Positions 25,570-62,440 of a DNA stretch of 64,000 nucleotides are shown here, piece by piece. The position numbers were made by a program, and so were the translations under genes. Location: the NCBI GenBank assembly GCA_012295275.1, contig CM022672.1, positions 15,562,001 through 15,626,000 on the forward strand, written 5' to 3'. Source of the DNA: Chrysomallon squamiferum (Eukaryota > Animalia > Mollusca). Every line of letters starts with the position of its first letter. Position 1 is the first letter of the stretch. The notes under the pieces are model-generated. The model was not told the origin of the DNA and made no database searches. It saw only the letters and a list, made by a program, of their open reading frames with translations.

Positions 25570-26134
25570 ATGGAGAAACAGTACTCTGTTAAATTTTTTA
25601 CTTCATTTTTGGAAGCCTTACAGAAAGTGTGTCGTGATTTTGTTGACTTTGAAGACAGTATTGAACTCAGTGGCTACCTATCCTTAGAGATAGACAATGT
25701 GAAAAAAGAACGATATGTACTTAGTGAGATGCTAAACAGCTCAGGAAATGTCATCAGTGAAAGTTACTGCACTAAAGCCTTCAAAACAGTCAGAAAATAT
25801 CAACAACAGTCAAGTGGAAGAGAAAACATAATGCCAAGATCACAGACAGTTATGAACAGATCACAAAGAGACTCACATCATTCATATATTACAGACTCCC
25901 ATCATCAGAATTCATCTAGTTCATATGTTAATTATAAAGATCATTCATCAGATTCTAGAGTTCCAAAACAATGGGGACATGATGTGTATGGATCAAATTC
26001 ACGGATTTCTCCTCTGCGTGGCTCAGGACACCAGTTTGGAGACAGTGGTACTGGAACTCATGAACTAAAAACCTCAACTCCCAAAAGAAGTTTATCAGCC
26101 ATTGTAATAGATGATGCACCTTCAAATAAAAGAG
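25570..26134 (+). CDS. Multi-isoform transcription factor, constant exon A (~75-aa ordered N-terminal domain + Ser/His-rich linker)
   Basis: 190-aa ORF; acceptor at 25546/25547; AAAATGG start context; phase-1 donor AGAG|GTAAAT at 26134/26135. Confidence 0.88.
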
Positions 26135-26580
26135 GTAAATAGTTATTGTTTTTAATTAAACCATCAAGCCTTTATTCAAATTACAAAAATACATTATTGT
26201 TATTATTACTGTTATTATTATAGAATGATGATACGGCTTAACTGAAAGGAAATTGTCTGTCACCATATGAGTTACCTGCATAGTGCAAGGGATCTTCTTA
26301 AATATCAAGGCACTGATATATTATTTTCTATAATCCTTAACCTTCAACTGTAAAATTTAATAGTTTTTATAAAACTAAGATGTAATCTACCCAGAATCGC
26401 TGTAAGTAATCTAATAATTTATCTGTAAATATTATTTGTTAAAGTTCTGGTAACACTTATTTTTTTTCTCTCTTTTTTTTTTGTTTATAGGTGACCCATT
26501 TTACAATTATTTTTAATTTGAGAATGTAACTTGTTTTCCTGTGGATGATTTTTATATCATAACTTATCATTAACTTGCAG

Positions 26581-27017
26581 GAAGAAGTGACTCTGTTCCT
26601 GATGACAAATCACTATCAGAAATGACTTCTCAACAAGGTATGTGTAAACTGGATGCAGATTCCATGCAGACTTCCTTTTCTGATACCTCACATTCTCAAA
26701 CCACGCCTCAGATGCCAGCAGCAAGCTCCTCAGCACAGTCATCTCAAGCTAATAATAACAGTAATAATAATAACCACAACATTTCATCTCAAGCATCATC
26801 TTCACATCAAAATTCAGAAAGTATACGCTTACCACTACAAATGACAATAAAAGATGAACCAGACATTCCATGTGTTGACATTGATTTGTCAGAGTTAGAT
26901 AGTGCAGATTCTATGGGTGGAAGTGACAGTGGTTCAGGTTATCCTTCAGCAGAAGGAACATCTTCAGGAGCTTACAGAATGGCAGCAAATAACCAAGGAA
27001 CATCTGAAACTTATCAG
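26581..27017 (+). CDS. Multi-isoform transcription factor, constant exon B (S/Q/N-rich linker, IKDEP motif)
   Basis: Acceptor TTGCAG at 26580 continues exon A in phase 1 (G|GA-RSDSVPDDKSLSEMTSQQ...) with no stop; ends at phase-0 donor CAG|GTAAAT 27017/27018. A+B = 1002 nt = 334 aa. Confidence 0.88.
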
Positions 27018-30000
27018 GTAAATACTTTATAATTGCTCTTATTTTCTTATCTGTTATCCCAGGTTCTAAAAAAAACCCCAAAACCCCCAAATCCCCCTAA
27101 TAACTTAAAAGAGTATTTTTCTCAAAAGACTTAAAACGTTATATAGTTATACTATTAAATTCTTCCAGTCCTCCACAGCTGAATGATGAAATAATATATA
27201 ATTCAAATAACTAAAATGAATGTTTAAAAAAAAAATCAATTTAGAAAGTCATGCATTTAGAAAACTAATAAATTCCTCCTGCAGACAAATCGGAGTCATA
27301 ATAACAATTTGTATACTTCTGCATCACTGAATGTCGACTTAATTTCAAGTTAAATAAACATCTAGATTTTTACTTTTTAACCACTGATAAATATGAAGAT
27401 ACTTATTTCCAAACTTTTGTTAATTGTTTGTCATTAATCTTACGAATAAGGTGAAATTATTTTTTATATAGATACAGACAGAGAAGTTTAAGAATAACAT
27501 AACAGCTTTGTCCTGTGACAAAATTGAAACAACCATTTTCACACAGTAAAAAAAAAAAAAAAAAATTCATCATATTTTATCTCCACCCCCAAAAAGTAAA
27601 TAAAAAAATAAATAATTTTAATCATTAATTAACCACACTTCCAAACTCGTAACTTTTTATGACCAAAAGTGATGTCATAAAACATTAATTTTTTTTTAAT
27701 TTACCCTTTCTGTTTGTTTTAAAAATGAAAAACAAATAATATGTTCAACAACCATATCATTTCTTATCTGAATTACAGTCTATTTCTTTTCTCTCACAAA
27801 TCATATTGGTGTTTCATAAAACCCCTTAATAAATGAGATAGCATTTCCTACATCAGCTCTGCATTTTTCTGATTATAGAACCTGGAATGACAGATATTCA
27901 GAGACGAAAATATGTTAACAAGATGGTTGTACAGTAAAAACTCACTAAACTGATTAATAGTACTATATGCTATATCTATATTTCTAATTAATATTTTCAC
28001 ACAAGTAAATTCCTGAAGCTCCTGTCTTCAAAGTCTCTTGAAAAATATCAGTCACTGACATACTTATTTTAAAATAATTCCTTTAACAAGAAAATATTAC
28101 TAATTTATTATTATTATTTTTTATAAAAATATGTTTATCTTTCAAAAACAAAATGTCAGTATTTGTTTAAGTTCATGTACCTATTACATGGTTTTGGAGT
28201 TTAAACAATTATTTTTGTTGTAATAACTGAAAGTGGGTTTTCAGATACACCATTCCTTGACTGTTTTCATCTCTTTCACATATTTAATTTTAAAGATTTA
28301 AAATTTTATTCATTTTGAATTTCATTTATTTATATATGTATATATGTGCATATTTGAAAGGTTTACTGTGGCACAGCAGTACTATATGTATTTACTGACC
28401 AGATAGCAAATAAGTAATAATTGTTTTTAGGAAAGCATCATAAGCTTAGGGAATCAGACTTAGATTTAAGGGTTATCAAAAAGTTCTGAATAATATATAT
28501 AATATATGTACCCAGACTAGTATGACCTCTAATTTAGACTATAATATAGTAAACACACATACATATTAATGTAATTAATAAAATACTGAAAATTACAACT
28601 AGTTTCGTAGGTCAGTGCCACAAATTCTGTTTTTAATAGTGTTTTGTAGGAAATTTTTTTTTTTCTCTCTTTTAATATTATATTATTTTTTATTTTTTTT
28701 TATTTGCTTACTTCTGTGTAATATTTGCCATCTGAAACTGTTATATAATTATCTTAGAAAATGTTAACCACTTAACATAATTTTCTCATAAATTATTAAT
28801 GTATTGGGGAGGGATTCTGTTCCTATGTGACAAATATTCAAATGCATATCAAAAAATAGGTATACAACTGAGTGATACATTTGTGTGTGTGTGTGTGTGT
28901 TCATAGCAATGTTTTTTAGGTATTTAATGGTTAACTATATCTGTTCAGTACAAAAAAAAAATGAACCAGAGCTTAGATATTACATCATTCTACAATTAAC
29001 ATTTTCTCATTTTATTTTCAATATTTAGTCTTTAGTAAGATTTAAAATATGGTTTCTGTATGTTTCTAAGTTTCCACTAGACATCCTGTTGGTGATACTT
29101 AAATATACGATTATAAATTCACTATACTGACTTACATAGCTATTACTACAGTTCTATAGTAGGAACAAATTTGAAACATAAGTACCTTTTGTGAATATTA
29201 CAATAGCATTAGCAATAACACCAGTTAAAATATTTTATATAATTGTAAATAAATTGTTAATTCATTAATTAAAGTAACTAAATACATAAAAATATATTTA
29301 AACATAAAAGAAAAAAAACAAAAAAACTTAATTAATAACAGCATGTATCTTCAATTATATTAGTTGCTGAATAGTATTTAATGTCAGTTGGAATGGGATT
29401 TTTGTTCACAGTATTTCACAATAATTGAAAACAAATAAATACAGACCAAAATCTAGTGTTTATTATCATATGGAAAGATAATTAAATATAAATATTACAA
29501 TTATGTTGTTAAATTGCATACAGTGTGAATGTGATTAGAAATGCCGTTTATGTAGTATTGGATAAAGGTCAACTTATGTGCTATGGATTTTTATATAATT
29601 TATTATGATTCAGTTACATATCTTCTTATTGCACATAAAGAATTTTAAATTAATTAATTTAATTGTATTTGTTAATTATAACGTACTTCAGTAATGTTTT
29701 TCAAACAACAAAATGGTTGGATATAACTGTTACATAATGATCCAGCAAATGATATTGTTATTTTGAAATACTATAATTAAGTGTTATGACGAATACTTCA
29801 TCACTTAAATAATGAAGATGAATAATATGCTAATGTCAGCTTATTTTTATATAATAAACATTTCATTTGTCTTGTAAATATATATTTAGAAATGATTACA
29901 GAATTTAATGGATAGCAGAATTGTGTGATATGTGTTTTAATTGTGTAGTTATCTCTGAAATGTTTTCCCAGGCGTGCACAAATTCCTTTAAAGATTGTTT

Positions 30001-33000
30001 TGTTTCTGCATCAGTCATCCATTTTGTCTGGCATGACCTATTTACCATTCATGTAAAATGTACTGAATGATTAGTCCTATGTTTACCAACATATTTTTAT
30101 TAACAGTACAAACATTCTTTCCAGTGCAATGCTTTTTTGTTGCACATAACATATGCAGTCAAATTAATATAAATTTTGCAAAGTAGGTGCATTCCCATTG
30201 GTTTTTAGAAGGCATCATAGCCAAATTTAACCAATCAAAAATCAGCAAAGCTATATAAGTTTAATTTAAAAAACCAGAGGAATCCTATATACAGGTAAAG
30301 AACATATGACAGTCCCTTACCATCGCAAACTGGACAGGTATCCGGTGTTGCTGAAAAAAAAAGAGTTAGCAGGAACAGTAGCTCTGGTGCTCATGCACAT
30401 ATTTTATTGTTCTGCAAGTTCCACGAAATACCAGAATGTGTTACAATCATGAAGAAAGCCTCCCACTAAATCATTTTGTTAAATGAAAGTATTGCTTTAC
30501 TTTAAATATTTGTCACATCACTTAATATTTTATGTGTTACAATAATTTGGCAGAGACTCAGATACTCATATTTACTAACTACACAAATAAGCTGACAATT
30601 TTGAATTTACCTAATTAAATTCTCCAAATAATTTATAGCTTTCATATTCTTATGGGCATAATATTTCTGTTTTGATAAAACTTTATTTGTCTTGAATGTA
30701 TTTGGACCTAACTACTTCACTGTGTTGATTTAACACATTAAGTTTAATTTAATCTGCTAATAACAGTGGATTTGTGTGTAACTCATCTGTTTGTAAGGAT
30801 CAGTAATGAAAAGTACATTATAAAGAAAGTGATAAATGTTTAGCACATATTTCTAGCTGTATCAAATAATACTAATTCAAGTTGAATTGAGTCTGTTTTG
30901 TCAAAGTGATATACTCTGGAAAAAAATGGAGACAATATCTGCCAGTTTATTTGCTACCCACACCTAGAGACATGTTAGGTTTGTTTTGTGAAATTTTCTA
31001 ATGTTACATTCTGTGTTTAGAAATGTTCTACACCATTTATTACTTTATTTTGTTACTGTTTTAGACCTGCTCAGAAAAACTGTAAACTGTTGGTGTGCTG
31101 ACTGTTTTTGTTACCGATGCAACAAGTTCAATCTTTCTAACCATGTTCATGTCATTGCTGGCAATGGCTTATATCAAAAGTTGTGTCCAAAAATGTCTTT
31201 TTCATGCCTTCAAATCAGTTTTGGAAAAAAAATGGCTGAAAATAAAACCAATATTCATGGGATAAAATGAAAGATCATTCAATTAACTTTCAAACAATAT
31301 GTGACACTATGGTGTGTTTTAAAGTAGCACATGCTTAGCAAAATTCCCATTAACTGATTAAGTTAAGTTTTCTACAGACCGAAATCACTGTAGATTTTAT
31401 GTACAATTAGAAAGGTCTGGCACTGTTTAAAATGATTATATTTGTATGTTTATATTTTTAATAACTTGTTGGCTGTTTTTCTTCTAGGTTCCTACCTTTA
31501 GCATATCCATTATAGCTCATGCTTAGCAAAATCGCTGTAAATTGTTTCGTACCTAGTCAAATTGCCGTAGATGGCAACTAAAAATAACTGGCTTTATTTG
31601 AAATGATTATATTTCTATATTGATTATATTGTTAATAACTTGTAAGATGCATGTTTTATTATATGTTATGGCTTTTACTGAATATAATATGAATATGTTC
31701 TGAAATAAATGAATTAACATTATTTAGCCAATAGTATCTTCCGTTTAAAACAGTTGATTATTTTGCTTTCAAAATTCTTGCAATAAACAGAGAATCACGA
31801 ATCCTAAACTAACAAATTATACTACATAACAGAACAATGTATTCAGAGGTATTGATGGAATGCTGAATAAAAATCTAAACATTTTTTTTTAAATAAAAAA
31901 TCATAAATTGATCATTTTTAAAACATCATTTTTGCTTGTGAATAAGCTCTATCAGAGAAAATTTCAACAATTGTCAGATAATACATAACTTTTGTTTGCT
32001 GTCAAACTACAGCAAGTACAAAGCTAAGAAAATTCTGTTATGTCTGCTTCAAATGACAGACCTATAACACCTGCGTGTTTAATTGCATCTAGCCTCATGA
32101 TTACATACATTTTATTGCCCTTAATTAATACCTGCAACACCTTTCTGGAGTAGACTACAAGGATTAGCTGAGTTTATGTATTGTAGAGGATTATAGTTAA
32201 ACATCAAATACTTGTATTCCTTTTAAGTAACAAATATATATGTGTGTTATATACACATCACATTAACTTTTTACTACTAATTATTTAATAGAGAAAATTC
32301 AAGCTGCTTATGTAAACAAAGTTGTGCTGTTCTATATAAATTGAAAAGGTAATTTTTTATATGGTCTTTATTAAAAATGTTAGATTCAAGTATGTCATTT
32401 GAAAAATCTTGTTAAATTGTTCGTAACACAGATTGAATTTTTCAAATAAAACCAAAACTTACACCACAGTGTCTGTTTGCACTTTTAACCATTTTGGCAT
32501 GTTTAGCATGATACTGTGAACACACATACAAACATACAGGTCTGAAAAAAATTGAGCTCATTTAGAAAGTTGGTCCCATCAGTCTTGTCTTTTGTGTCAG
32601 TTACTTTTCAAACTATAGTTGGCCAAAGTTGTCAGTTACTTTTCAAACTACAGTTGGCCAAAGTAAGGCTGAAAACCGACCAAATACCTGTCATACTGAT
32701 TTGCATATATCTTTTATTTCTTTTTGCTACAGTTTTCGTTATGTGCATATTATGTGAAATTAAAGTTAGAAAAAATTTGCCTTTCGGTACCTATTAAATA
32801 ATATCTATGGTTTAAGAATTTGCTAGAGTAAATGATATAAGTAATGTGTACAGATTTTGTTCTGTTCTCATACTGGATAAAAATATTATGTTTCTTTACA
32901 TTCATTTTCATTTAAAGAATGTGCAAGTTATTAAAAAGAAGGGAAAAAATAATAAATATAAATGTTTATGCACACACATTTAAATAATTTAATTTTTATT

Positions 33001-33738
33001 CCTCCTGGAGTTTCATCTAACATTAAAACTGACAAAGGCTTAAATTTGTGTATTAAATGTATTATTAGTATTTCAATATATTTTGTTGAAGGAAATAATG
33101 AGGATGTTAGAGTGATTTTAGTATAGTTTATAATAATTTTATTAGTAAAATAAATGCAAGCTTACGTCAGCTTTTGAGAAAAACTAAATATTTTCTGTTG
33201 AAATAGACATATTTCTTAAATATTAAGTTACTTTCTTGCACGAAAATACTGATTTGTTTCAAAACAAGTAAATATGCAGCGAGCATTGGCTTAATTGAAT
33301 TTACTATATGTAAACAGATTTCTGAAAACAGTTCTCTGTTCTGTTTTTATGTGAACATGACTCTTTCTGATATTTTTCTGAATATACCTCTTTTGCAATT
33401 TAAAATTTTAATCCAAAATATATGAACAGATTTATATCTCAAAATAATTATCACCAAAATTAAACACTGACCTGGTATGAACAAAATGCAAAAACTAACA
33501 AGCAAAAAATGTTAACAGATAACTGAAAACAGTAAATAAATATGTATTGTGATAAATATTTTACCAGTGGTTAAAAAATGCATTCCACATCCCTTACTGT
33601 TATTAGTAACTGCTGTAAAAATGAAACGGTGGACATTAATGCTTACATAATAATGACGCAAGTATACATTATATTTGTAATTATGCTAAGATCTTTGTTT
33701 GAGTGTATTGTTGAGACTGCTTCCTCTGGTTTCTGCAG

Positions 33739-34032
33739 ACTCCATCGAACTTCATCCATCGTTATGCCAAGCGGCCTTCTCTTGCCATGCAGAATGCTTT
33801 TATTGCTGTCCAAGAGGGCCTCCTAACTGTATCAGCAGCAGCTCGAGTGTTCAACGTCACCCAGCAAGCCCTGCACCACAGAGTGAAAAAGGGTGGTTTG
33901 TTGACAACAGTAAAGCGTGGTTATCAACATGCTTTAACAGGCGAAAAGAAACTGCGACTGGAACAGTTACTAGCTGACTGTAGTCAAGAAGAAACTTTTG
34001 AAGACATTCAGTTAATAAAAACTAATTTTTAA
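33739..34032 (+). CDS. Variable terminal exon V1, pipsqueak-type HTH
   Basis: Acceptor CTTCCTCTGGTTTCTGCAG, phase 0; TPSNFIHRYAKRPSLAMQNAFIAVQEGLLTVSAAARVFNVTQQALHHRVKK... with its own stop. Confidence 0.88.
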   Translation, partial: TPSNFIHRYAKRPSLAMQNAFIAVQEGLLTVSAAARVFNVTQQALHHRVKKGGLLTTVKRGYQHALTGEKKLRLEQLLADCSQEETFEDIQLIKTNF

Positions 34033-34950
34033 AAATGTATGGCTACAGAAACTATAATTTAGGCATAATTTGTGCATGGGATTTTGTTCAAAGTGTTTAA
34101 TGGCAAATTTATGTATTTAAGCACAGATTCGTAGGAATTATGAAGTTTAAATGAAGTAACATTATAAGGACACACACACACACACACACACACACATGCA
34201 CATACAAATATCAACACAAATGCATTCATATACATCCTACAAACACAAACACAAATACTTAAAACTGTATTTTGAAACCTTTTTGTTTACATTTTTTTAT
34301 ATATCTGTATTTGTGGGGGAAAAACTTGAAACAAAAAACCCACCAGACTTATATACTTGACTCTTCAAGAATAAATGACTGACAAATAGTTGTAATATGC
34401 AAAAGCACACTAGAGATGAACAGATACATTATAAATGGAAAGTTAAAGGTTTAACATTTAACATACATTTATGGTGATTTGATCTGTGGTAGATAAAATT
34501 TCAAACATATTACATTTTATAAAAGGTTAAAATAATATCAAGTCAATTGTAATGTTTATTTCCTAGATACGGAAAATCCAAATGCATTTATCATTTTTAT
34601 TTTTATTTTTATTTTTAATGTATAAAATGAGACCTTTTTGAATCTTTATTTGTTTTCAACTGATCTGCCAAAATAGCTTTATTATAAGATTATTAAAAAG
34701 ATATCAAGTTATCCTTTTATTATGTTACATTTGTTTTTTTTAAAAAGCCCAAAATGCGGCAATACTTTTTTCTTTTTCACATTAATGAATTGCAAATCAT
34801 GCATGTCTGTGGGATATTTGGAAACTTTGCCTGAATCTCTAAAACAGTTGAAAATTGTTTATAAAATGTTTTTCATTCATTTAAAAAAAAAAATGCATAT
34901 GGATAAAAAAAATTATCTGTTGCTTAGAGTACTTCCTCTGGTTTCTTCAG

Positions 34951-35199
34951 AATAAAACATCCTTTCGAAGTCTGTCAAAGAAAATCAACCTAGCTTTCAC
35001 AGCTGTAGAGGAAGGGCTTGTAACTGTTGGTGCAGCAGCAAGGTTGTTTGGAGTATCTAAACAGGCACTGTACTATCATGTCAAGGTTCGCAGAATACAG
35101 AATATTGTCAAACATGGATACCAAGAAGGTCTTGAAGACTGGGAAAAAAAACGAATCGATGAACTTTTAGCAGCATGCAATAATGATCCAGAAAAATGA
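34951..35199 (+). CDS. Variable terminal exon V2, pipsqueak-type HTH (absent from ORF track)
   Basis: Acceptor CTTCCTCTGGTTTCTTCAG, phase 0; NKTSFRSLSKKINLAFTAVEEGLVTVGAAARLFGVSKQALYYHVKVRRIQNIVKHGYQEGLEDWEKKRIDELLAACNNDPEK*. Contains no Met, so it must be spliced to an upstream exon. Confidence 0.88.
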   Translation, partial: NKTSFRSLSKKINLAFTAVEEGLVTVGAAARLFGVSKQALYYHVKVRRIQNIVKHGYQEGLEDWEKKRIDELLAACNNDPEK

Positions 35200-35392
35200 A
35201 ACAAAATCGAAACTGTTCAATACATTTAGGTTTGATTTCAGTATACTTGGTGTTGGCAAACAGGCAGATTTAGATACTTTAACTAATATTTTTGGATTGA
35301 CCATAAAAACATTAACGTATGTTATTCTTAATAAATGAAGCACAATTTATCTAGCATTAGACAAGTACATGGATTAATGGTCTTAGCAGTTG

Positions 35393-35458
<66 letters not shown>

Positions 35459-36218
35459 CATAATTTAGAAATATTTTGATACATGTCTAGCTGTATTTGT
35501 CTCTTACAGATTATTACATATCAGTATATATTGTATTAACTTGTATATATTACAAATATTATTATCATTGGTATAATTGATATTTGCCACATATTTAGTT
35601 ACTGCTCATGTTTTATTAAATCAAGTACTTGTTTAAACATTTTAATATTGTTGAAATATTCCTGAAAGATGTTAGGTTTTTCTTTTACAAAGTTTCAGTA
35701 CCCCACACATTTGACATTTGCTTTGGAGTTTAAAAGTTTGTTACTTATAAGACTTTGGTAGTTTGTTAGTTCAAAAATTTTCATGTGCTGTTATAATTGG
35801 CTTCATTATTTGATTTTAATGTTATATATATATATCTTATTTATTTATTTATTTTTTTAAATAGTTTTTGAAGTCTAGTTTCTTATTAAGTTCCACTCTA
35901 TGGTGAGGAGTTTATCACAGAAAGATTTCTCGTTAATTGATTGTTGTGTGTACGTACATAAATTTGTTGTTTCATTACATGAGTATACTACTGGTTATGA
36001 TAATGATAAAGTTTAAACTAAAATATATGATCCCTTTAAAATTTTATTTTTGTTATTATTTTTGTTAATTATTTTTATTATCTTGTTATTATTATTATAA
36101 TTATTGTATATAATAAAAAAAACAAAATTGTTAAAGACATTTTATACATTTACAAGAAAAACTGTCGACTTTGTTAATGTTGGATGTTTCTATGACACCC
36201 TTCCTCTGGTTTCTGCAG

Positions 36219-36464
36219 AATATTGCGAGGTCTTGCAGTCGGAGAACTCTTGCCATGCAGAGTGCGCTTACTGCAGTTGAGGAAGGCCTTCTGACTGTCA
36301 GTTCTGCAGCCAGGGTGTTTGGATTAACACAGAGCGCAGTGTATTACAAAGTCAAGCATCATGGTTTGTTACCATTAGTGAGACGTGGAATACAACCTGC
36401 TTTAGTAGGACGGATGAAATTGAGAATTGAAGAATTATTGGCAGTCTGCAACAAAGAATCTTAA
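36219..36464 (+). CDS. Variable terminal exon V3, pipsqueak-type HTH
   Basis: Same acceptor motif, phase 0; NIARSCSRRTLAMQSALTAVEEGLLTVSSAARVFGLTQSAVYYKVKH... Confidence 0.88.
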   Translation, partial: NIARSCSRRTLAMQSALTAVEEGLLTVSSAARVFGLTQSAVYYKVKHHGLLPLVRRGIQPALVGRMKLRIEELLAVCNKES

Positions 36465-38133
36465 TACTTTTGTAATTATTTGAAAACATTATTTTATAAA
36501 GATTATTCAAGTCTGTATGATTATTATTATGATTATTATTATTTATTTTTTTAAATGTTTGTTTATAATTTACAAGATCTCTGTTGTGAAAAAAAAAGTA
36601 TAATTTCTCTAGTTTCTCACATAAAATCTGATCTTTATGCACCTTCAAACTTAGTAACATAAATTTTATAACAGCATCTAAGAGGTCTATAAAAACTAGT
36701 TGCATTATTTCTTTGGAAAGTTCAATAATTTTTTTGAATATATATTTTCTTTTAATAGATAGGCTGGTGATTTCTATAATGTGAATCATCCATTTTTGCA
36801 GTTTATAATTCCTTTATAATATTACTCTCTTTTGAAAATAAGAATCAAAAAAATTATTTAATATTTTTATAGAATATAGAAATAAAGATTTGAACATAAA
36901 ATGTAGCTCTAACTGTTTAACACAGAGGATCAAAGTTATAATTTTCTTCTGTGTTCAGAGGAATAAAATACTGAAGAGAAATGTAGCCTTACTTATAGTA
37001 TTATATTTTATTTAATACATCAACATTTATACACACAGCATATATAGTTACATTTTGTAGCTGTTATATACAATAGTGTTAATAGGTTTCAAAGCAACTG
37101 TACTACAAAATGAAAATCAGTATGTTGGATCATAGAAAGTTACAGAGCTGTTTAAATTAAAATAATTAAATATGTCACAACTGAATTCAAAAGTTCTCAT
37201 ATGGAAAAAAATTTGTAGCTAAATTGCAAAAGTAAGAGCTTAGTTCACTGTGTTTTTGTGTATGAAACCAGCAATTTAAAGTGAGTAATATCAATACTGA
37301 TATTTTCACTAAATATTAATGATACACATTTTCACCACTTGATTATATTTGACATTTCCAGTTCATACCATTCTTTTTATTATTATTATTATTATTATTT
37401 TTGTTACTTTCATTGTTTGAATTTATTTCACATTGTGTTCATCAGAATAATAAATTGTTACTGATAGTTATGTAATACAAATGTAGAAAAAACAATAAAT
37501 ATTTCATATGATGTTAATCACTTTGTTGTGAATGGTTATTTTGAGCAGTACTGTTTTAGTGAGGTTTTACAGCATAGAATAATAATTTAAACTTCAAACC
37601 AGACTGTAAACAGTTCAGATCCAAATTTACATTGGTGTCATTATTTCACTGGTCTCATATAGTATTGCATGCATACACTTTAGTTTTGTATTTTCTTGTT
37701 AAATCTAAACGTTTACACTGATGCAGATATTTTATCTATAAACATAATAAGAAAAGCATCATCATCTATGTTATGGAGAAAAGTATGTCATATTGAATGC
37801 AGATTGTGTATGTGGAAAACAAGTAAAAAAAAAAGAAGGCATTTATATAATGTAGCAGATACATTCATACTGATGCATTACATTTGTAAATAAGATGGCA
37901 CGCATACCATATAGTAGGCAGAACATTTTATACATTTAAAAATCTCAGTAATCTAAAAAATCTTCTGTTTAATGTACAAACTATTGAATGCAGAAATCGT
38001 AAATTAGAAAATATAATAATATAAATAACCCTGCATAACATACTCCAGTCCCTGCCAAAGAATCCCATCTATCTAATGTAGCAGATTACATCATACTGAA
38101 TGATGCTCAGATCACTTCCTCTGGTTTCTTCAG

Positions 38134-38400
38134 GACTTACCACTCAAATACATCAGCCAGAGGACACTTGCCATGCAGAATGCCATTACTGCTGTTAAGG
38201 AACATTTGCTCACTGTAACATCAGCTGCAAGACTGTTTGGTGTGTCCCAGTCAGGCCTGTACTACCATATCAAGAATAAAGGTCTGCTGATGACTGCTCC
38301 AAGAGGAACCCAACATACACTGACAAATGACATGAAGAAGAGAGTAGAAGAACTTCTTGAACAATGTCAACTTGGATTTAATTCTAATTTTGTCCATTGA
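38134..38400 (+). CDS. Variable terminal exon V4, pipsqueak-type HTH
   Basis: Acceptor CTTCCTCTGGTTTCTTCAG, phase 0; DLPLKYISQRTLAMQNAITAVKEHLLTVTSAARLFGVSQSGLYYHIK... Confidence 0.88.
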   Translation, partial: DLPLKYISQRTLAMQNAITAVKEHLLTVTSAARLFGVSQSGLYYHIKNKGLLMTAPRGTQHTLTNDMKKRVEELLEQCQLGFNSNFVH

Positions 38401-39346
38401 TGTATATACTGTAGTTTGTCTTTAGGTAGCCTTGTTGATTTTAGAAATAATGTAATATTAACTTGACTGTAAAGAGTTGCATATTGTAAGAACAGTGTTT
38501 TAAATTGATAACATATACCCTCTGCATTATAACAATGCTGAAACAGTTATATGTACAATATGTAGAATAGTAAAAAGTGTTTTATTTAAATTACAATTTA
38601 GTGCAATTTACTTTCATATAGCTCAAGTTTAAAATATAAAAATATATCAGTGATATGATGCATGGGGGTGCAATGTCACAGATTGTAGATGAATCATGTT
38701 AAAATAAGAGTAATTTTAGCATATATATTCTTTAATTAAGATTTTGACAGGTTACACGAAAACACAAAGAACATGTTTTATTGACTGATTTCAGCAAACA
38801 ACATGTATAGACATGAAAGTCAAGATATATTAAAAACTATTGATGGCAAAAAAAAAAAAAAAAAATCAATGCAATGGTCTGTATTAACACGCTGTAACTC
38901 AAAACTAAATTGCATGACATCCAACTGTTTATCCTATGCTTCCCCACAATTTTTGACCTGATTTATATAAATAGATATTTTAATATTTATTGTAAATTCA
39001 TTTTTATATATATGTTAATAATATATGTTTTAACAGATGGAATCATAGTATTCATAAACTACTCACATAAAAACTCACATCATTATGAAATATTCCAAAC
39101 TATGCGAGCATTTTATTATTTTTTTCATTTTATATGGACGTTTATAATTTTTTGGTTTCTATGAGGGTATTTAATAATTTCTTTGATTTCATATGGACAC
39201 TTTATCTTTTCTTGATTTTATAAGGACATTGTATCTTTTCTTTGATTTTAAAAGGGCATTAATTGTATTGATTTTATAAGGGCATTTTATAATAATCTTT
39301 GTAACTCATTGCCTGGAACTCAGACACCTTCCTCTGGTTTCTGCAG

Positions 39347-39613
39347 AATTGTTTGACAGAAGATCTTTGGTGTCGGCGTCGAAACAGGTACCCACCGGTT
39401 GCTATACAGAATGCTGTGGTTGCTGTTGAGGAGAGAATACTGACTGTTAGTAGTGCTGCAAGGATGTTTGGTGTACCACAGCAGACTCTGCATCACAGAG
39501 TGAAGACATCAGTCACAACGCCAGTGTTGACGGGCCTACAGCCCACGCTGTCAGAAGAAGAAAAATTAAGGCTTTCAGAATTGCTTTCATGGTCAAAAGA
39601 AGGATTGTCCTGA
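39347..39613 (+). CDS. Variable terminal exon V5, pipsqueak-type HTH
   Basis: Same acceptor motif, phase 0; NCLTEDLWCRRRNRYPPVAIQNAVVAVEERILTVSSAARMFGVPQQTLHHRVK... Confidence 0.9.
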   Translation, partial: NCLTEDLWCRRRNRYPPVAIQNAVVAVEERILTVSSAARMFGVPQQTLHHRVKTSVTTPVLTGLQPTLSEEEKLRLSELLSWSKEGLS

Positions 39614-39929
39614 AATGTTTGGTCAAGAATTATCTGGAACCTATTCACTGCAAACTATCTATTTTACCTAAAAAAAATAATGATAATGCTATTCAAAATA
39701 ATGAAAACAAGTGGAATATTTTGATGTAAAATAATCATCTATATTTACTGTATTTATTTTATTTTATTTTATTTTATTTTATTGTTAGTTTAAAAAAACT
39801 TAAACAACGGTTCATTGAAAAACCTTACAAAATTTGTTCACAGTGGTTTGATGGCCAATGGTGTCATTTGATATTTATAATTGTTTTTATTTATTTATTT
39901 TCTTTTATTACTATTACTATTCTAACTAT

Positions 39930-39981
<52 letters not shown>

Positions 39982-40538
39982 TTTAATATAAACTGATTGT
40001 AGTGCTTTTAGTGTTTGTCAGACTTAACCTGTCACTTGCAAAATGTGTGACTTCAATACCACTTTGGTTAAAACTTATTTTAATTTGCTTTTAAATGTAT
40101 AAATCAAGTCTGATATAATAGTTAATCATGACAACATTTAATCTTCTAAGATGTATTGATATCACATATCTACACAGCATATCACGTGAATAGTCAAAAG
40201 AAAAATAATTTCTTTGAAGATGTTAAAAAGCCACATACTGTACCTGTTAAAACATTTTGTTGGGTGGGCTTTTTTTTTTTTTTTCAAAAATTTGTGATGT
40301 GACAGAATATTGTATTTAAAATCTTATTTATTTTAATTATTAGAAGAAAGATAGTGCACAATGGAACATGTTTTTTTTTTGTGTGTATGTTTGTTTTTGT
40401 TTTCTTTGTTATTTTCAAATTATTTATCTGAAGAAAAAAAAATAATAATAATTAGTATATTTTTTAATTTTTAAAATGTTTTTTTAAATATTGTTATGAG
40501 TTTTGTGGGACTCAGACTCCTTCCTCTGATTTCTGCAG

Positions 40539-40799
40539 AATCCTTCAGTGGACCTGTTTCGCAATCGTCGCTATCCAGCTATTGCTCTGCGGAATGCCTT
40601 AATTGCTGTCCAGGAGAAAATATTGACTGTTAGCAGAGCTGCCCAAATGTTTGGAGTGCCACAGAAAACATTGTACCGTCAAGTAAAACGACTGATTACA
40701 AACCCTGTGCTCACAGGCATACAGCCTCCTCTCACAAACAAAGAAAAGTCACGACTCTCCCAACTACTTTCATGGACAAATGATCAAGTCAATTCTTGA
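40539..40799 (+). CDS. Variable terminal exon V6, pipsqueak-type HTH
   Basis: Acceptor CTTCCTCTGATTTCTGCAG, phase 0; NPSVDLFRNRRYPAIALRNALIAVQEKILTVSRAAQMFGVPQKTLYRQVK... Confidence 0.9.
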   Translation, partial: NPSVDLFRNRRYPAIALRNALIAVQEKILTVSRAAQMFGVPQKTLYRQVKRLITNPVLTGIQPPLTNKEKSRLSQLLSWTNDQVNS

Positions 40800-41390
40800 C
40801 CTGAAAAATAACATTTTAACTTTTAAAAAAATTATTATTGTTGTTTCATTCTACATTCATATATATCAAAAGGGTCTGTTTTCTTATTCTCATTTTTAGT
40901 ATATAATTTATTAATTATTACATCTGTTTCAGTTTCAGTATGTAAATTACATTTAATTTTAAATCATTTTACATTCAGATAGTGAAAACATGTGTTTCCT
41001 TTTTGGTAATATCTTTAATTTTTAAAAAGTTATGAATTCACAAATAATTTGTAACTCATATTGTCTCTGTTAATTACATTTGTTCCATAAGGAGATATTT
41101 TGTGGATGTAATACTATTAAAAGAGTTCTGATAGAAACAGCTGAAGACTTCATTTGATGCATTTAGATAGTCAACCATTGATGTTGAATATTTGTGCTGT
41201 TATATTAATAATAACAGTGATTAATAAGAAATTGTTATCATAATAATTTGTATTTGCATTGAATACAGAATGTTATATAGTCTAGTTGTGAAATTGTCAT
41301 TTAATTTAAATTATATATTTACTGACAGTTATTTATAATAAAATTTAGATATATCCTTGTGTTCCATTGTTTGAATTTTGTCTGTAATTT

Positions 41391-41404
41391 ATTATTATTA
41401 TTAC

Positions 41405-41464
<60 letters not shown>
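41391..41464. repeat. (ATT)n microsatellite
   Basis: Direct reading. Confidence 0.95.
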
Positions 41465-41465
<1 letters not shown>

Positions 41466-42715
41466 TTAAAATATGAAAATATGGATTGTTGTGATGAATA
41501 CTGTTAAGATTTGTTTTGGATAAAGTCTGGAGTTTTCACCAACACTTTTCTTTATTGAAGATTTTATTTCTTGTCTTTAGCATTATAAAATCTCTGCCAT
41601 GTCTTCATAGACACAAGAAAAATTACCCTTTGTTTCTCTGAAACCTTCCCTCACTTATAACTGACAACATAATCTTGATGTCTTTTAATCCAGGAAATCT
41701 GTAAAAGCTGAATACAGTTTGTAATGAATTTTAAGATAAAATTTACAGTTTGTTTTTTAAAACTATTGATAAAATATGTGCATCAGTACACACCAACATA
41801 TCTGGGTTTCAGTGTAAATATATCACTAGTAAACTGAAGTTTAAAAAAAGTGGATGTAATTGTGAGGTTTGTATAAAGTTGTCATTTGAAATGGCACATT
41901 TATATGACTGTACCAAGGAAAAGATAAAATTTAAAAAAAAAGTTTTTCATTTGTATTTTGAAAAAAAAACCCAGTTATTTATAAAGGTTTTATTAAAAGG
42001 ATACTTAATTTTTTTAAGAGTTCCTTTCTGTCATTTTGTAGTGTATGTTTCTAAATATATATATATTCCAAATTTGGAATCCATACCTGAAATAGTTTTC
42101 ATGCGGCATCTTCCCCAATATGTTTGAATAGTCAGAAAAATGATATGTGATAAAAAACCAAATGACATTTTCTAAACCATATTACCACTTAATATGGCTT
42201 AAGGGGTGATGTTATGCATTGTTATAAAGTTATCTGTATGCATATGGAATTCCTTTTTAAAAAAACCTGAAATATTTATCACAAAATATAAACATTTTAT
42301 ATTCATTTTCTAAATGGTCATGTCAGAAACAAAAAATAAGTTTTGGTTTATTCAAATTTTATCATTTTTCATCTAGCATGTTCCCTTATTCTCACTGTGT
42401 ATATTTCACGGTTTTCTAGTATTGTCGCTTATCATGTCAAAGGACAGAACTTGTATACAAGAAAGTAAATTATGTTTTAGATAAGTGAATAACTCCTAAT
42501 ACATGTATGATTCATTTTGTTTGGTTAGAATTGTAAATTACTTCATGATCATTATTCAAGTTTGGGTAGATTTCACAGTACTAAATAAATGGGAGAAAAG
42601 GATAAAATCACAGTGAAACTAGTTAAAAATGATGAGCTAAAAGTTAACAAATGTTAATATTAATTGTTACCATGTTACTCGCGTACTTCTTAGAATCTGT
42701 ATCTGGTTTCTTCAG

Positions 42716-43096
42716 AGTTGCCTGCAGCAGACATTTCGACGGACTCAGTGCCAGTACTCTCCTGTTGCCATGGAACACGCTTACATGGCTGTTCAACAAG
42801 GCAAAATGACAGTCACTGCTGCTGCCCGAAAGTTTGGTGTCCCTCAGCCCACACTCCACGCTCGCTTCAAGTTTGGGCGTGGTCCAGGAGTCCTGCGCCG
42901 GGGACGCAGACCAGGGATGTGTTGCAGTTTCTACAAAGGCTTGCCAACAATGGTGCAGAATGAAGTGCCAGATCTAGAGAGTATTGATATGTGTAACAGT
43001 GGTGTTGATGTTTCTTTTGATAGATCTTCTTGTGAAAACTCGGCAGATGCTTGCAACACTCTTGTGCAGGAATTGATGCCCGGGGGTACAGGATGA
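42716..43096 (+). CDS. Variable terminal exon V7, pipsqueak-type HTH with acidic tail
   Basis: Acceptor ATCTGGTTTCTTCAG, phase 0; SCLQQTFRRTQCQYSPVAMEHAYMAVQQGKMTVTAAARKFGVPQPTLHARFKFGRGPGVLRRGRRP... Confidence 0.9.
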   Translation, partial: SCLQQTFRRTQCQYSPVAMEHAYMAVQQGKMTVTAAARKFGVPQPTLHARFKFGRGPGVLRRGRRPGMCCSFYKGLPTMVQNEVPDLESIDMCNSGVDVSFDRSSCENSADACNTLVQELMPGGTG

Positions 43097-45209: not shown

Positions 45210-45467
45210 AATTCACTGTCATACATCAACCTGAGAACCCTTGCCATGCAGAATGCTGTGACTGCTGTGAAGGAACGCTTGCTGACTGTAACCTCAGCTG
45301 CAAGACTGTTTGGTGTGTCGCAGCCAGGTTTGTACTACCACATAAAGAACAAGGGTCTGCTGGACATAGCACCGCGAGGAATCCAGCACATCTTGACAGA
45401 CGAAATGAAGAAGAGACTGGAAGAACTCGTTAAACTCTGTCAACCAGGGAAAAAATCTGATATTTGA
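45210..45467 (+). CDS. Variable terminal exon V8, pipsqueak-type HTH (close paralogue of V4)
   Basis: Acceptor GCTCAGATCACTTCCTCTGGTTTCTGCAG, phase 0; NSLSYINLRTLAMQNAVTAVKERLLTVTSAARLFGVSQPGLYYHIK... Confidence 0.88.
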   Translation, partial: NSLSYINLRTLAMQNAVTAVKERLLTVTSAARLFGVSQPGLYYHIKNKGLLDIAPRGIQHILTDEMKKRLEELVKLCQPGKKSDI

Positions 45468-45679: not shown

Positions 45680-45721
<42 letters not shown>

Positions 45722-46069: not shown

Positions 46070-46106
<37 letters not shown>

Positions 46107-48312: not shown

Positions 48313-48540
48313 AATCTGACATGGAGAAAACCAGTGCAGCACTATTCTCCTGAAGATATGAGGAATGCTTACAACGCTGTAAGGCAAGGTTCGATGAAAC
48401 TGTCTGAAGCCTCCAAGTATTATGGCATTCCTAAACAGACTTTGTTTGACAGAATTAAATTTAACAGAGGGCCTGGCATACTCAGAAAAGGAAGAAGCAT
48501 TTTGATACTACCTTCACTTATAAATACAGGACACAACTAA
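48313..48540 (+). CDS. Variable terminal exon V9, pipsqueak-type HTH
   Basis: Acceptor TTTTGGTTTCTACAG, phase 0; NLTWRKPVQHYSPEDMRNAYNAVRQGSMKLSEASKYYGIPKQTLFDRIK is a canonical psq pattern. Confidence 0.92.
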   Translation, partial: NLTWRKPVQHYSPEDMRNAYNAVRQGSMKLSEASKYYGIPKQTLFDRIKFNRGPGILRKGRSILILPSLINTGHN

Positions 48541-49274: not shown

Positions 49275-49310
<36 letters not shown>

Positions 49311-50852: not shown

Positions 50853-51065
50853 ACGCGGTGGTGCAAACTGCGACATAAGTACACGCCAGAGGAACTGCGT
50901 GCTGCCTACGAGGCTGTCGTGGAAGGCAAGATGACGGTCACAGCAGCCGCGAGAATGTTTGGCATTCCTAGACAGACTCTGAAGGATCGCTTGAAGTTCC
51001 AAAGAGGACCTGGCATACTTCGAGGAGGAAACTCTTCAAAGGCATTCCAGACTTCTAGAGAATGA
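50853..51065 (+). CDS. Variable terminal exon V10, pipsqueak-type HTH (absent from ORF track)
   Basis: Acceptor TTCTGACTTCTTCAG, phase 0; TRWCKLRHKYTPEELRAAYEAVVEGKMTVTAAARMFGIPRQTLKDRLKFQRGPGILRGGNSSKAFQTSRE*. Confidence 0.92.
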   Translation, partial: TRWCKLRHKYTPEELRAAYEAVVEGKMTVTAAARMFGIPRQTLKDRLKFQRGPGILRGGNSSKAFQTSRE

Positions 51066-53816: not shown

Positions 53817-54194
53817 AGGACACCCAAACTTGCTGATGACATATTGGTCATGCGCCAGGACGTCCAACCCTCCAGTGCCTCTGATGCAGTTTTTGTGCCC
53901 CAGCGCAGAAGACAGTTCAACTACCGCTGCAACATATGTAATCGGGGTTACACTCTGTTGGCTAGCTTGAGGCGACACGAACACTCTCACAAATCATCCA
54001 TTATGTGCCGGAAGTGCACAATGTTCTTTAAGACAGGCGAGGAGCTGAAGAAGCACAATGAGAAGAAACATGCCAAAGTGGCCTGTGTGATCTGTGGCAA
54101 ATCTTTCTCCACTCCTGCTGTACTTCGATCTCATCACACACTGTGTCTGGCTCGCTCTTTTAAAAACACACAGAACAAAAACAGTCCTTTTTAA
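53817..54194 (+). CDS. Variable terminal exon V11, three zinc fingers (C2H2, C2H2, C2HC)
   Basis: Acceptor TTTGTTTCAG, phase 0; CNIC..HEHSH, CRKC..HNEKKH, CVIC..HHTLC. Confidence 0.9.
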   Translation, partial: RTPKLADDILVMRQDVQPSSASDAVFVPQRRRQFNYRCNICNRGYTLLASLRRHEHSHKSSIMCRKCTMFFKTGEELKKHNEKKHAKVACVICGKSFSTPAVLRSHHTLCLARSFKNTQNKNSPF

Positions 54195-56994: not shown

Positions 56995-57375
56995 ACCACT
57001 GCGATTGCCTCAGCGAAAAATGGCAGTGAAGAAGAAGCGATGGCTATATGCAGCAGCCTCATCAACAACAACGATCCATTTAACAATATGTATTCAAGAC
57101 GAGTGCGAGAAGCCAATTTTCAGTGTGAAATTTGTCACAGAACTTACACACACATGAAAAGTCTCAACAGACACAAGGTGTCACACGTGTATTCTATAAT
57201 GTGCAGAAAATGTACCATCTATTTCGACTCAGAGGAGGCTCTGAATACCCATAATAAACTGAAACACTCACCAGTCCAGTGTGCTGTGTGTGGAAAAACA
57301 TTTTCTTCGATATCCTGCAGGAAGAATCATCAGAAAAGCTGTAGGGGTTTTGTTGAAGGAGCAAATGGTAGTTAG
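56995..57375 (+). CDS. Variable terminal exon V12, three zinc fingers (C2H2, C2H2, C2HC), paralogue of V11
   Basis: Acceptor TCTGTTTCAG, phase 0; CEIC..HKVSH, CRKC..HNKLKH, CAVC..HQKSC; shares SIMCRKCT with V11. Confidence 0.9.
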   Translation, partial: TTAIASAKNGSEEEAMAICSSLINNNDPFNNMYSRRVREANFQCEICHRTYTHMKSLNRHKVSHVYSIMCRKCTIYFDSEEALNTHNKLKHSPVQCAVCGKTFSSISCRKNHQKSCRGFVEGANGS

Positions 57376-59136: not shown

Positions 59137-59377
59137 ACTAATAGACACGCCAACAGTTTCACTGACTTCCCTGGTACACAAGAACAACTTAGCGGAAAGC
59201 GAGAAATGCGAGCCAGTGCTAGTCGAGATCCTGCTGGGACTCTGCTGAACCTTCTCATTGACCTGGTATTCACACCGACAGAGCTAGCAAACTCTAATGG
59301 GCTCGGATTGAGGTTCAGACACTCCGAAGACCCCAATAAGAAACCATTAGACCCAGCCAAAGTTGAAGCTATCAAAG
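59137..59377 (+). CDS. Variable exon V13a, N-terminal part of a BEN domain
   Basis: Acceptor ACTCCAG at 59136 is phase 0; TNRHANS...AGTLLNLLIDLVFTPTELANSNGLGLRFRHSEDPNKKPLDPAKVEAIK has the BEN hallmarks (L..vF..eeLa.sn..G ... LDp.kv.aIk); phase-1 donor AAAG|GTAAAT 59377/59378. Confidence 0.85.
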
Positions 59378-60759
59378 GTAAATGTTACACAGAAATGTTT
59401 TGTTAAAATGGATCTCTGTGTAGGGTGGAATAGTGAGTATCCTTTCATTGGATTGTTTTTCTAGTTCTTTAAATCTCTGGCAATAATAGGGGATAAGAAA
59501 AAAATGTATAACATGTCCCTGAAAAGGCATAAAGGCTGCCAATTTCCTCTTTTCTTTAATTTCATTTCATGCTCATAGATACATAAAATGTCTGACATAC
59601 TCATAGACTGAGAAAATCATTGCAAATTCCCTATAAATTCAGTTCATTAGGCTAATAAAAATTATATTTCTGTATTGAAATAATGTCAGAAAATGGCTAC
59701 TTAAGTGGGCTTGTTATATTTTCATATTAGGAAAGACTGAGGTCTAGTTATAACTATATAGTTTAGGCAAAACAAAATTTGGCTATTTTATGTACTAGCA
59801 GAGATACATTTTTATATTATCTTGTCCCTTTTTAATTCTTTCCTTTTGATTGTTTCATCATTTGTCTGGATGAACACTTGAAATGATTTGAGCACTGAAA
59901 GGATTTTTTTTTCAAATAAATTAAACTTAGAAGTTGAGGAAAAGGGTTAACATTTGCTTCTCTTTTTTATTTTTTCATTCTTTTGTGTTTTTTTGTTGTT
60001 TTTTTTGCCCCCTTTATTTATGGTTATTCTGTAATTTTCTCTTTCTTTTTTATGTCAGTGACATTTGTCCATTCACTTTTTTTAACATATTAGTTCACAA
60101 GTTTTCTAAAGATAAAAATAAAATTGAAATCTGGCTATGGCAGTTAGTGAAAAAGAAACTGTTTTATGATAGTTATGTGTAAAACATAATTTGTGAAAAA
60201 AAAAAAAAAATTTTTTTTTTCCTTTTATTCTGTTGCTGATGGTGGTATAGCTGGTTTTCAGTTTTAATATTGATGAAAGTACAATTGAAATTAATGCTAG
60301 GGTCAGAAAGTGAAATATTTCAGGAATGTAGATTTGAGAGATTTGGACCATTGTGGCTTTTTGTGTTTGGTATTACAGCCTTTTGAGATCAGCCATTCCA
60401 AGATATTTGACTAACATTAACCAAAACTCCGGAACTATTATCAAATTTTGTGGTATTTACTTTTCTATCTATAAGAAAGTGCACCCCTTGCTGCTAACCA
60501 AAAAAGACTAAACTGTGGGTTTTATCTCTCCTCATCTGCATGATCATGAAACATATAGTATTCAAATGTTGATTAAAATCAGTTTGTATGACACTAAATA
60601 AAATATTTTTTCTCCTATTCAAACTAACATGCAAATGACAAAATTCTGTAGCATACCATTTAAATGTCTTCTCAGTTAAAATGTGTTGGGTATGACTCAA
60701 AATAAAATATTTTTTTCTCAGACTAACACACGAATGACAAAATTGTGTTTGTCTTTCAG

Positions 60760-60896
60760 ATTATCTCAACTCAGTTTGCTTACAGAAAAATTGGCTAATG
60801 TTGTCACTCAAGGATGTCAATCGGAAGTTTACAAACAAGTGCTCGGGTGCGCGTAGACCTCGATGCGATTACAGCAAAAAGTCACAACATTACTGA
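60760..60896 (+). CDS. BEN C-terminal alternative exon V13b-1
   Basis: Acceptor GTCTTTCAG, phase 1; (D)YLNSVCLQKNWLMLSLKDVNRKFTNKCSGARRPRCDYSKKSQHY* completes the BEN domain. Confidence 0.85.
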
Positions 60897-61615
60897 TACA
60901 CAGCTTATATAGCAGCTTTCTCAAAATACCTCAAATCCCTTTACTCCAAGTGTTTGATACTCAGTTGACATTCATTGGCTGTTTCAATTTCTACCACAGT
61001 TGCTTGTTCTTTTCTTTTTTTCTCTCTATTTATAAATATATACATGTGTGTCTTTGTTGTTGTCTGTAAGAAAATACATAGTGACCAAATTTTCACTGAG
61101 TTTAATACAATGTGGAAAACAGTATAGAATCTGTTGTTTTAACAATAATTAGCCATCTGTTTTTATTAGTAGTATTTATTTATTTATTATTTTATTTATT
61201 TATTATTATTATTTCTTTTCTTTTTTCTTTTAATGTTTGCATTTTGAACTCAATTTATTAAAGTTCAGTAAATATTATTTTTATTTGTCAATGCTCAAAC
61301 CATTTATCTATTGATTTACATTGTATACTATTAGTACAGGATCATTCTTCCAAAGAAAGAAAATCCTTAATCTTAAAATTACATTTTCTCTCTCATAATA
61401 ACTTAAAAACCTTTCAGTTAAATCCATTCAAATCATTCAAAGGAATAAAAAGGGAAAAGATTATCATTTTGTTTATTATTTTTTTAAACAAATATAATAT
61501 TATCATTATTGCGATCCTCATTAACATCCTTATCATCATTATTGTTGTTATTTTCATTTCCTGGATGTGTGTGTAAAAATAGAAATCATTCCAAGAAAGA
61601 TCATCATTATTATTA

Positions 61616-61892
61616 TAGATTGAAAATGCTTTATCTGAAATGTTTGGGACCTGAATGTTTCTGATTTTGGAGTATAAGGAGATAGCTCAGAATAGGATCT
61701 AAAATAGAAATTATGAATTCTATTTTTTATTTCACATACAGCTTATGCAGATAATCTCAAGGATTTGTTATATAATATTTTTTATACCTTTGTGCATAAA
61801 ATAAAATTTGTGTGTGCCATATATCTGAAAACTGTAAGATATTACTACTTCTGCTGTTCAAAACATTTTTCAGATAAGGGATCATCAATCTT
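61616..61892. mobile_element. Degenerate non-autonomous pogo/Tigger-type DNA transposon (MITE)
   Basis: Imperfect terminal inverted repeats TAGATTGAAAATGCTTTATCTGAAA ... TTTCAGATAAGGGATCATCAATCTT, flanked by TA. The left end resembles Tigger4-like termini as I recall them (CAGGTTGAGTATCCCTTATCCGAAATGCTTGGGACC). Confidence 0.6.
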
Positions 61893-62062
61893 TATTATTT
61901 TTATATAGATTTTCTGTGTGTGCTTGTGTGTGTGTGTAAACACACTATCCTGTGTCTATGAAAAGGCAGAAACTATTCCAAGAGATAAAGAAACAAATTA
62001 CATAACAGTGCAGCTAACTGAAGTGATGAGTGGACTTTTCACAACTCTGTGGTTTATTTCAG

Positions 62063-62184
62063 ACTACATGCAGACAGTCCACCTGCGACTTGGTTGGGAA
62101 CTGCTTTCATCAAAGAAACTGCACAAAAAATTTGCTAACAAAATGTGTCATGCAAGAAGAGATCTGCGTCTTGTCATCACTTAA
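62063..62184 (+). CDS. BEN C-terminal alternative exon V13b-2
   Basis: Acceptor TTATTTCAG, phase 1; (D)YMQTVHLRLGWELLSSKKLHKKFANKMCHARRDLRLVIT*; aligns without gaps to V13b-1. Confidence 0.83.
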
Positions 62185-62324
62185 TATCAGTGACACTTTT
62201 ACAAAAATATACACTTCATATTTAGTTGTTTTATTGTCAGAATATATTACGTTTTTGTGAAAAAAAAAGGTTGAAATGAAGCAACACATCTTTTTTTTTT
62301 TTTTTTTTTCTTCCTTTTTTTCAG

Positions 62325-62440
62325 AACATCTGCAAACAGTGTCTGTTCAAAATGGCTGGGTTCCTCTTCAAGAAAAGCAGATTAATAGAAAGTTTAACAA
62401 CAAACGTACAAACTGCAAGCAAAAAATTTGGCCTAATTAA
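62325..62440 (+). CDS. BEN C-terminal alternative exon V13b-3
   Basis: Long poly-T tract + CAG, phase 1; (E)HLQTVSVQNGWVPLQEKQINRKFNNKRTNCKQKIWPN*; aligns without gaps to V13b-1/2. Confidence 0.8.

Follow-up and report, generated by a model that had tools for sequence, protein, structure and literature searches.

Alternative last exons with predicted DNA-binding domains behind one constant region in the gastropod Chrysomallon squamiferum

We analysed 64,000 nucleotides (nt) of the Chrysomallon squamiferum genome (assembly GCA_012295275.1, contig CM022672.1, positions 15,562,001-15,626,000, forward strand; hereafter the window, whose own numbering is used throughout) and found in it a gene whose two constant exons end at a single splice donor, 27017, followed on the same strand by an array of thirteen variable exons, V1 to V13, for predicted DNA-binding domains. 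We put at about 0.9 the probability that this architecture, a constant region with alternative DNA-binding last exons, is real, on evidence that comes in part from RNA and strongly from orthology. In the explanation that we propose, donor 27017 would join one or another of thirteen predicted last exons, of which two were seen joined. The splicing would likely take place in cis, linked to the 3′ end that each exon brings with it, and would give about 15 predicted transcription-factor isoforms with a common non-BTB N-domain and differing predicted DNA-binding ends. A second, nested choice would let one of three exons finish a BEN domain. We regard this full cis mechanism as probable.

Constant region and evidence for its joins

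The window has the composition of AT-rich animal DNA (GC 0.20-0.35), and all features described here lie on its forward strand. The coding part of constant exon A (25570..26134) runs from an ATG through a conserved N-domain and a low-complexity linker to a phase-1 donor, and constant exon B (26581..27017) carries a Ser/Gln/acidic linker up to the shared donor. Together they form a 1002-nt open frame of 334 amino acids (aa) with a GT directly after 27017. An earlier note on this DNA, made from the sequence alone, had placed the end of the constant region at a phase-0 donor in this position, which is where RNA contigs leave the constant region.

The constant region is present in five runs, and assembled contigs of four of them were compared across 26780-27045 (3′ part of exon B); three of the four are RNA runs from a single study, and the fourth, X5, is unclassified. 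Contigs of runs X1 and X2 depart exactly after 27017 and continue at 50853, the acceptor of V10, with letters that are unique in the window; this join passes over nine nearer acceptors and 23.8 kb. A short contig of run X3 joins 27017 to 42716 (V7). The main contig of run X3 ends at 27017, as expected for a branch point in assembly, and another run X3 contig, like the contig of run X5, reads unspliced through the donor into the intron. The check proposed earlier, a search for junctions from 27017 to several acceptors, thus returned two different acceptors joined in RNA contigs, 50853 and 42716.

The orthologous gene of Gigantopelta aegis, LOC121383526, supports the same layout. Residues 1-80 of exon A are 97% identical to it, and the whole constant part is identical at 242 of 317 residues (76%). 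Thirteen of its RefSeq isoforms were taken into the comparison (X1-X8 and X10-X14, with X9 left out); RefSeq X-isoforms are RNA-guided models. They share exactly 317 aa and part from one another at the residue that corresponds to donor 27017, and their ends match V2, V3, V5/V6, V7, V4/V8, V9, V10, V11, V12 and the BEN ends a, b and c. The comparison with a relative's orthologous locus that the earlier note had suggested therefore gives a match of isoform ends to window exons that is almost one to one. All 15 predicted ends have intact frames, and for 14 a G. aegis isoform ends in an intact counterpart. Thus the gene with a constant region and alternative terminal exons, as claimed earlier, is backed by two RNA joins together with orthologous RefSeq isoforms.

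The N-domain, 76 aa long, fits no Pfam family. No BTB match was found by Pfam (E up to 1) in exon A or B, in any of 22 close members or in any of 53 diverse members of the family described below, in agreement with the earlier description of the N-terminus as non-BTB, and a profile of the 53 members had no sequence match in PDB (E up to 10). An AlphaFold2 model built on the 53-sequence alignment has a helix at 3-24 and strands at 30-41, 45-56 and 61-72, the last strand being weak, with a predicted local distance difference test (pLDDT) score of 79.6 and a predicted template modelling (pTM) score of 0.65. The BTB fold is mostly helical, and the predicted arrangement of one helix and three strands would be unlike it; fold searches with the model returned no clear match. 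Its placement, its degree of conservation and the parallel with BTB suggest that the N-domain is an oligomerisation module.

The array of variable exons and the BEN exons

At all 13 acceptors, an AG stands directly before the first base of the exon, which opens a phase-0 frame of 70-126 aa. The exons are all on the strand of the constant exons, as the earlier note had it, at a spacing of 1.2-3.2 kb that corrects its rougher 1-3 kb. Twelve of the 13 have their own stop codon, so that each mRNA would carry a single end, and V13 has a phase-1 donor instead; V2 lacks a Met. Both the twelve stops and the missing Met had been pointed out before. Exon GC is 0.39-0.52, compared to 0.28 for the region. 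The combination of an AG and an open frame of 70 aa is seen at 8 further places in the region (21 groups altogether), and this signal alone is therefore no proof; domain content, orthology and RNA joins carry the case.

Ten of the exons are of the psq helix-turn-helix (HTH) type. V1 (33739..34032) has no clear partner among the 13 orthologue isoforms. V2 (34951..35199), V3 (36219..36464), V7 (42716..43096) and V9 (48313..48540) are partnered by isoforms X11, X10, X3 and X13, respectively, V5 (39347..39613) and V6 (40539..40799) best match isoforms X8/X7, and V10 (50853..51065) best matches isoform X14. V4 (38134..38400) is 75% identical to V8 (45210..45467) and groups with it and with isoform X12, the best match of V8. 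HTH_psq is the top Pfam match in nine of the ten and the second in V2, and it exceeds the curated cut-off in seven. The two triple C2H2-type zinc-finger exons, V11 (53817..54194) and V12 (56995..57375), both have a zf-C2H2 match and are partnered by isoforms X4 and X6. Between the V5 stop and V6 (39614-40538) there is no AATAAA or ATTAAA, and V5 messages may use the 3′ end of V6.

Conservation among the psq exons follows codon position (0.48, 0.61 and 0.37 at the first, second and third positions). In a tree of 28 psq ends, starred cross-species pairs were obtained for V2, V3, V7 and V9. The same tree has a starred 12-row clade made up only of ends from this locus, and ends of two other loci fall into their own unstarred groups. 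This grouping by locus indicates that the array probably grew by tandem exon duplication within the gene.

V13 (59137..59377) encodes the N-terminal half of a BEN domain, matching Pfam positions 3-45 of 76 at 20.8 bits against a cut-off of 23.2. Its donor after 59377 (phase 1) and the acceptors 60760, 62063 and 62325 complete the domain through BEN end a (60760..60896), b (62063..62184) or c (62325..62440), each of which supplies the rest of the domain; end a holds the predicted C-terminal recognition helix. They are identical to isoforms X1, X2 and X5 at 83 of 95, 83 of 94 and 80 of 92 residues, respectively. Full orthologue BEN isoforms pass the Pfam cut-off (28-37 bits) and align weakly to the BEN domain of NAC1 (E 0.003). 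The splice falls after profile position 45, and by both alignments the alternative exons provide the C-terminal third. A fly BEN domain solved together with DNA has its helix 5 in the major groove, and its minor-groove contact is the loop that connects helices 3 and 4 (PMC4281564). Because the alternative ends cover the C-terminal part that holds helix 5 in this solved complex, the nested choice likely swaps, by analogy, the predicted major-groove recognition helix on a fixed scaffold. Reading through the V13 donor (59378-59406) meets a stop at 59406, nine codons past it, and a sixteenth product with half a BEN domain is possible; one paralogue isoform ends five residues past the same point of the BEN half. 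A short local duplication in the intron just before BEN end a (60598-60740) could include a degraded version of the acceptor of that end.

The exons as a whole thus agree with the ten psq, two triple zinc-finger and one BEN exon with three ends that had been counted earlier. They belong to unrelated folds (HTH_psq, zf-C2H2 and BEN), the joins to finger and BEN ends resting on orthologue models. Of the earlier claim of at least 15 DNA-binding specificities, 15 predicted end sequences stand; they are predicted sequences only, and the likeness of V4 and V8 bears on the count.

Six-frame profile scans of both strands of the window detected no additional psq, C2H2, BEN-end or N-domain exon; the profiles had been built from these exons and their relatives, so that matches to the exons themselves are circular. 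The earlier note had suggested that the array may run past 64000. It probably ends at 62440 instead, because all 13 orthologue isoforms compared map to exons within the window. An open frame of 150 aa at 63551-64000, which runs off the window end and has no Pfam match, probably belongs to the neighbouring gene and not to the array; it contains a motif that resembles a cell-cycle destruction box.

Acceptor motif, choice of ends and alternative explanations

A conserved acceptor motif was found at 33720..33738, before V1, and the same motif stands before V2, V3, V4, V5 and V8, with V6 having one change. Among V1-V6 and V8, positions -19 to -7 (13 nt) are 98% identical, whereas four-fold degenerate sites reach 44% and the sequence beyond -30 reaches 33-37%. 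Since four-fold sites are only 44% identical, recent duplication does not explain the conservation of the motif, which likely tunes the choice of end. In the intron between exon B and V1, 30271..30282 is an exact 12-nt complement of the motif, and the only exact complement of its 12-nt core in the window; it matches 6 of the 13 acceptors exactly and a seventh with one mismatch. Markov simulations of this intron gave a 12-nt match in 4 of 2000 cases, and nine real control segments gave 7-9 nt, in a test that was chosen after the match had been seen.

Pairing between the 12-mer and the acceptors would be a candidate way for distal exons to compete. The complement covers the pyrimidine tract (-18 to -7), and pairing would for this reason more likely dampen proximal acceptors. 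A precedent is given by the 3′ variable regions of Drosophila PGRP-LC, CG42235 and Pip, for which excerpts of one study describe docking-selector pairing that activates a cassette, as proven by mutation (PMC6191721). Like those systems, the snail gene would pair a single element in an intron with stretches that precede several 3′ cassettes in tandem; unlike them, its complement is only 12 nt long and lies over the pyrimidine tract, whereas the fly pairing activates. We treat a docking role of the 12-mer as a lead, and as unlikely. By duplex energy the site comes second within its intron and does not surpass the top-scoring windows of the control regions (-16.6 against -14.8 to -17.1 kcal/mol), and V9-V13 do not match it. 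A stretch of 86 nt around the 12-mer (30210-30295), bounded by AG and GT, would give an in-frame stop after exon B and is a possible poison or cryptic exon.

Besides the duplex energy, several points weigh against the reading given here. The joins seen amount to 2 of 13, both to distal psq exons, and no RNA join to a zinc-finger or BEN exon, nor a second-tier BEN join, was detected in the C. squamiferum contigs across the compared interval. Both joins rest on assembled contigs of three RNA runs, with one run X3 contig unspliced, and the RefSeq isoforms are models from genome annotation. Three of the ten psq exons (V2, V3 and V8) fall just under the Pfam HTH_psq cut-off, and V4 and V8, to judge from their identity, may share a target. 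Poly(A) hexamers are no commoner than background (2.4 AATAAA per kb), V5 having none before V6. Moreover, cis and trans splicing look alike in these contigs.

The last point leads to the best-surviving alternative, in which the same proteins would receive their ends at least partly by trans-splicing from separately transcribed variable exons, with the acceptor motif as a trans-splicing signal. The use of V10 in spite of nine nearer acceptors would fit this, as would an acceptor motif far more conserved than neutral sites, and the closest fly analogues trans-splice, according to excerpts of PMC11426971. On the other side, all exons are collinear on one strand, and cis splicing suffices; in addition, no 25-residue word of an end is common to different constant regions among 14 G. 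aegis groups (see below), which counts against joins between paralogues, not against joins between alleles. We consider trans-splicing unlikely.

It is quite improbable that the gene has few real ends, with most of the array being duplicated, rarely used exons and the RefSeq isoforms annotation noise. Seeing only two joins would agree with that, the contigs give no depth ranking, and some psq scores are marginal; but all 15 frames are intact, 14 of them with an intact counterpart in G. aegis, where the constant part has diverged to 76% identity, and both codon-position bias and near-invariant acceptors indicate selection. Finally, one could take the psq, finger and BEN pieces for stray remains of transposons, or for small genes of their own, within a long intron. 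The resemblance of HTH_psq and related ends to transposase DNA-binding domains lends this idea some colour, but the spliced RNA joins and orthologous isoforms largely refute it. Also against it are the single strand and single phase of all exons, the absence of a Met in V2, psq frames that stop within 70-126 aa with no long open reading frame able to hold a transposase (DDE) after any exon, and similarity of psq-exon DNA that extends only from about -40 to +200, the flanks beyond -40 being at background identity (0.33). The earlier note had named dispersed copies with terminal inverted repeats as a finding that would count against its reading; no such repeats were seen among the 25 longest of 2287 inverted pairs, whose arms are long and of low identity or simple AT repeats.

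A mollusc family and its relation to known systems

The earlier note had treated the gene as a single special locus, and in this it did not hold up: the gene is one member of a multi-gene mollusc family. When G. aegis proteins were grouped by identical first 150 residues, at least 14 constant regions emerged, to which 143 proteins belong; their ends begin in 129 different ways, and one contig of 91,665,651 bases carries them all. Two more constant-region groups were found beyond these. In one paralogue, LOC121383032, a single BEN half serves 11 full BEN ends, and there are four psq-like ends besides. A profile search with the N-domain returned 252 representatives at E <=0.001. Out of 20 among the best 150 representatives, 17 carry names; the named relatives are the gastropods Haliotis, Gigantopelta, Patella, Pomacea (isoform X26), Littorina, Babylonia, Nucella, Batillaria, Lymnaea and Physella; N-domain relatives also occur in the bivalves Solemya and Sinanodonta, and alternative ends were seen in gastropod proteins only. 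A common constant part with differing ends was observed in Pomacea, Littorina, Babylonia, Patella and Haliotis, and in one further protein pair, from contigs of 1.8-2 kb. The literature searched, to which subscription journals and the supplements of genome papers did not belong, describes no such mollusc family, although a supplement could mention it; its isoforms are already public in RefSeq under dozens of uninformative and misleading names.

Constant-plus-variable transcription factors were previously known from a few insect BTB genes. For example, broad, fruitless and tramtrack have, like lola, a constant BTB domain and alternative zinc-finger last exons. KRAB-, SCAN- and ZAD-zinc-finger clusters combine a lineage-restricted N-terminal module with C2H2 arrays and have diversified mainly by whole-gene duplication. 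The snail family resembles these clusters in its lineage-restricted N-module, its many DNA-binding ends and its clustered expansion, and differs from them in using gene duplication together with arrays of last exons of several folds.

According to the papers cited here, mod(mdg4) has a constant N-terminal region and at least 30 isoforms, mostly with FLYWCH and one with BEN (PMC11426971, PMC4281564, PMC5094011), lola has 20 isoforms, 17 of them with different zinc fingers, and in both genes trans-splicing attaches 20-30 ends to a constant region with BTB (PMC11426971). The likeness to mod(mdg4) lies in one constant region with many alternative C-terminal DNA-binding ends, and extends to a FLYWCH end in the Pomacea relative. 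However, mod(mdg4) uses a TTK-type BTB domain and trans-splicing, in contrast to the non-BTB domain of the snails; only one other fly locus is exceptional in this way, whereas at least 14 constant regions on one G. aegis contig have the snail layout; and for the nested swap within the BEN domain we found no description. With lola the snail gene shares constant exons and an array of alternative last exons, but it has a different N-domain and mostly psq-type ends in place of BTB and zinc-finger ends. Likely, then, the snail family works like mod(mdg4) and lola but is no member of either; it would be a convergent design that is set on an uncatalogued domain and has spread to many loci. Non-membership follows from the failed BTB sequence test and from reports, seen in excerpt, that TTK-type BTB is arthropod-specific and not found in Mollusca (PMC11426971) and that mod(mdg4) is arthropod-specific (PMC4208683). 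Of the earlier picture of an independent locus mixing unrelated folds, the non-BTB N-terminus and the psq, C2H2 and BEN ends remain; the mixing itself has a precedent in the FLYWCH and BEN isoforms of mod(mdg4), as extracts of PMC4281564 and PMC5094011 describe.

The same design on an unrelated, uncatalogued domain, at many loci and from limpets to pulmonates, would be a case of convergent evolution, and suggests that the diversity of mollusc transcription factors is badly undercounted. The nested BEN exons would offer a natural series for how one helix sets DNA specificity, and the conserved acceptor motif a mutable handle on the choice of distal over proximal last exons, which is not yet understood in mod(mdg4) and lola either. 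A wider view is possible but tentative, namely an undescribed mollusc repertoire engine in which chromosome-clustered genes with a new oligomerising N-domain would use captured transposon-derived modules as last exons, vary them by single-helix swaps and mix hundreds of specificities in hetero-oligomers, with each cell choosing its exons by means of an RNA docking site that would hide the acceptor motif. If true, this engine would combine the roles of mod(mdg4), KRAB-ZNF and ZAD-ZNF as their single counterpart among lophotrochozoans.

Pfam analysis of 83 family proteins gave C2H2, DUF3504, psq, FLYWCH, piggyBac-type finger, CENP-B_N and Tc5 HTH ends, and more than half of the proteins had no match at E 0.0001. 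In one paralogue end, psq is followed by a weak Tc5 HTH, which is the order in pogo-type transposases. End modules in the family thus often resemble transposase DNA-binding domains, and may have been captured from transposons; if they bind DNA as predicted, the ends could have distinct targets. Relatives P0053, P0069, P0073, P0028, P0043 and P0231 have alternative ends that belong to no Pfam family and may be further uncatalogued DNA-binding modules. Close N-domain relatives from abalones (P0088-P0108, mostly Haliotis) mostly end in DUF3504, which may be the ancestral partner of the subfamily.

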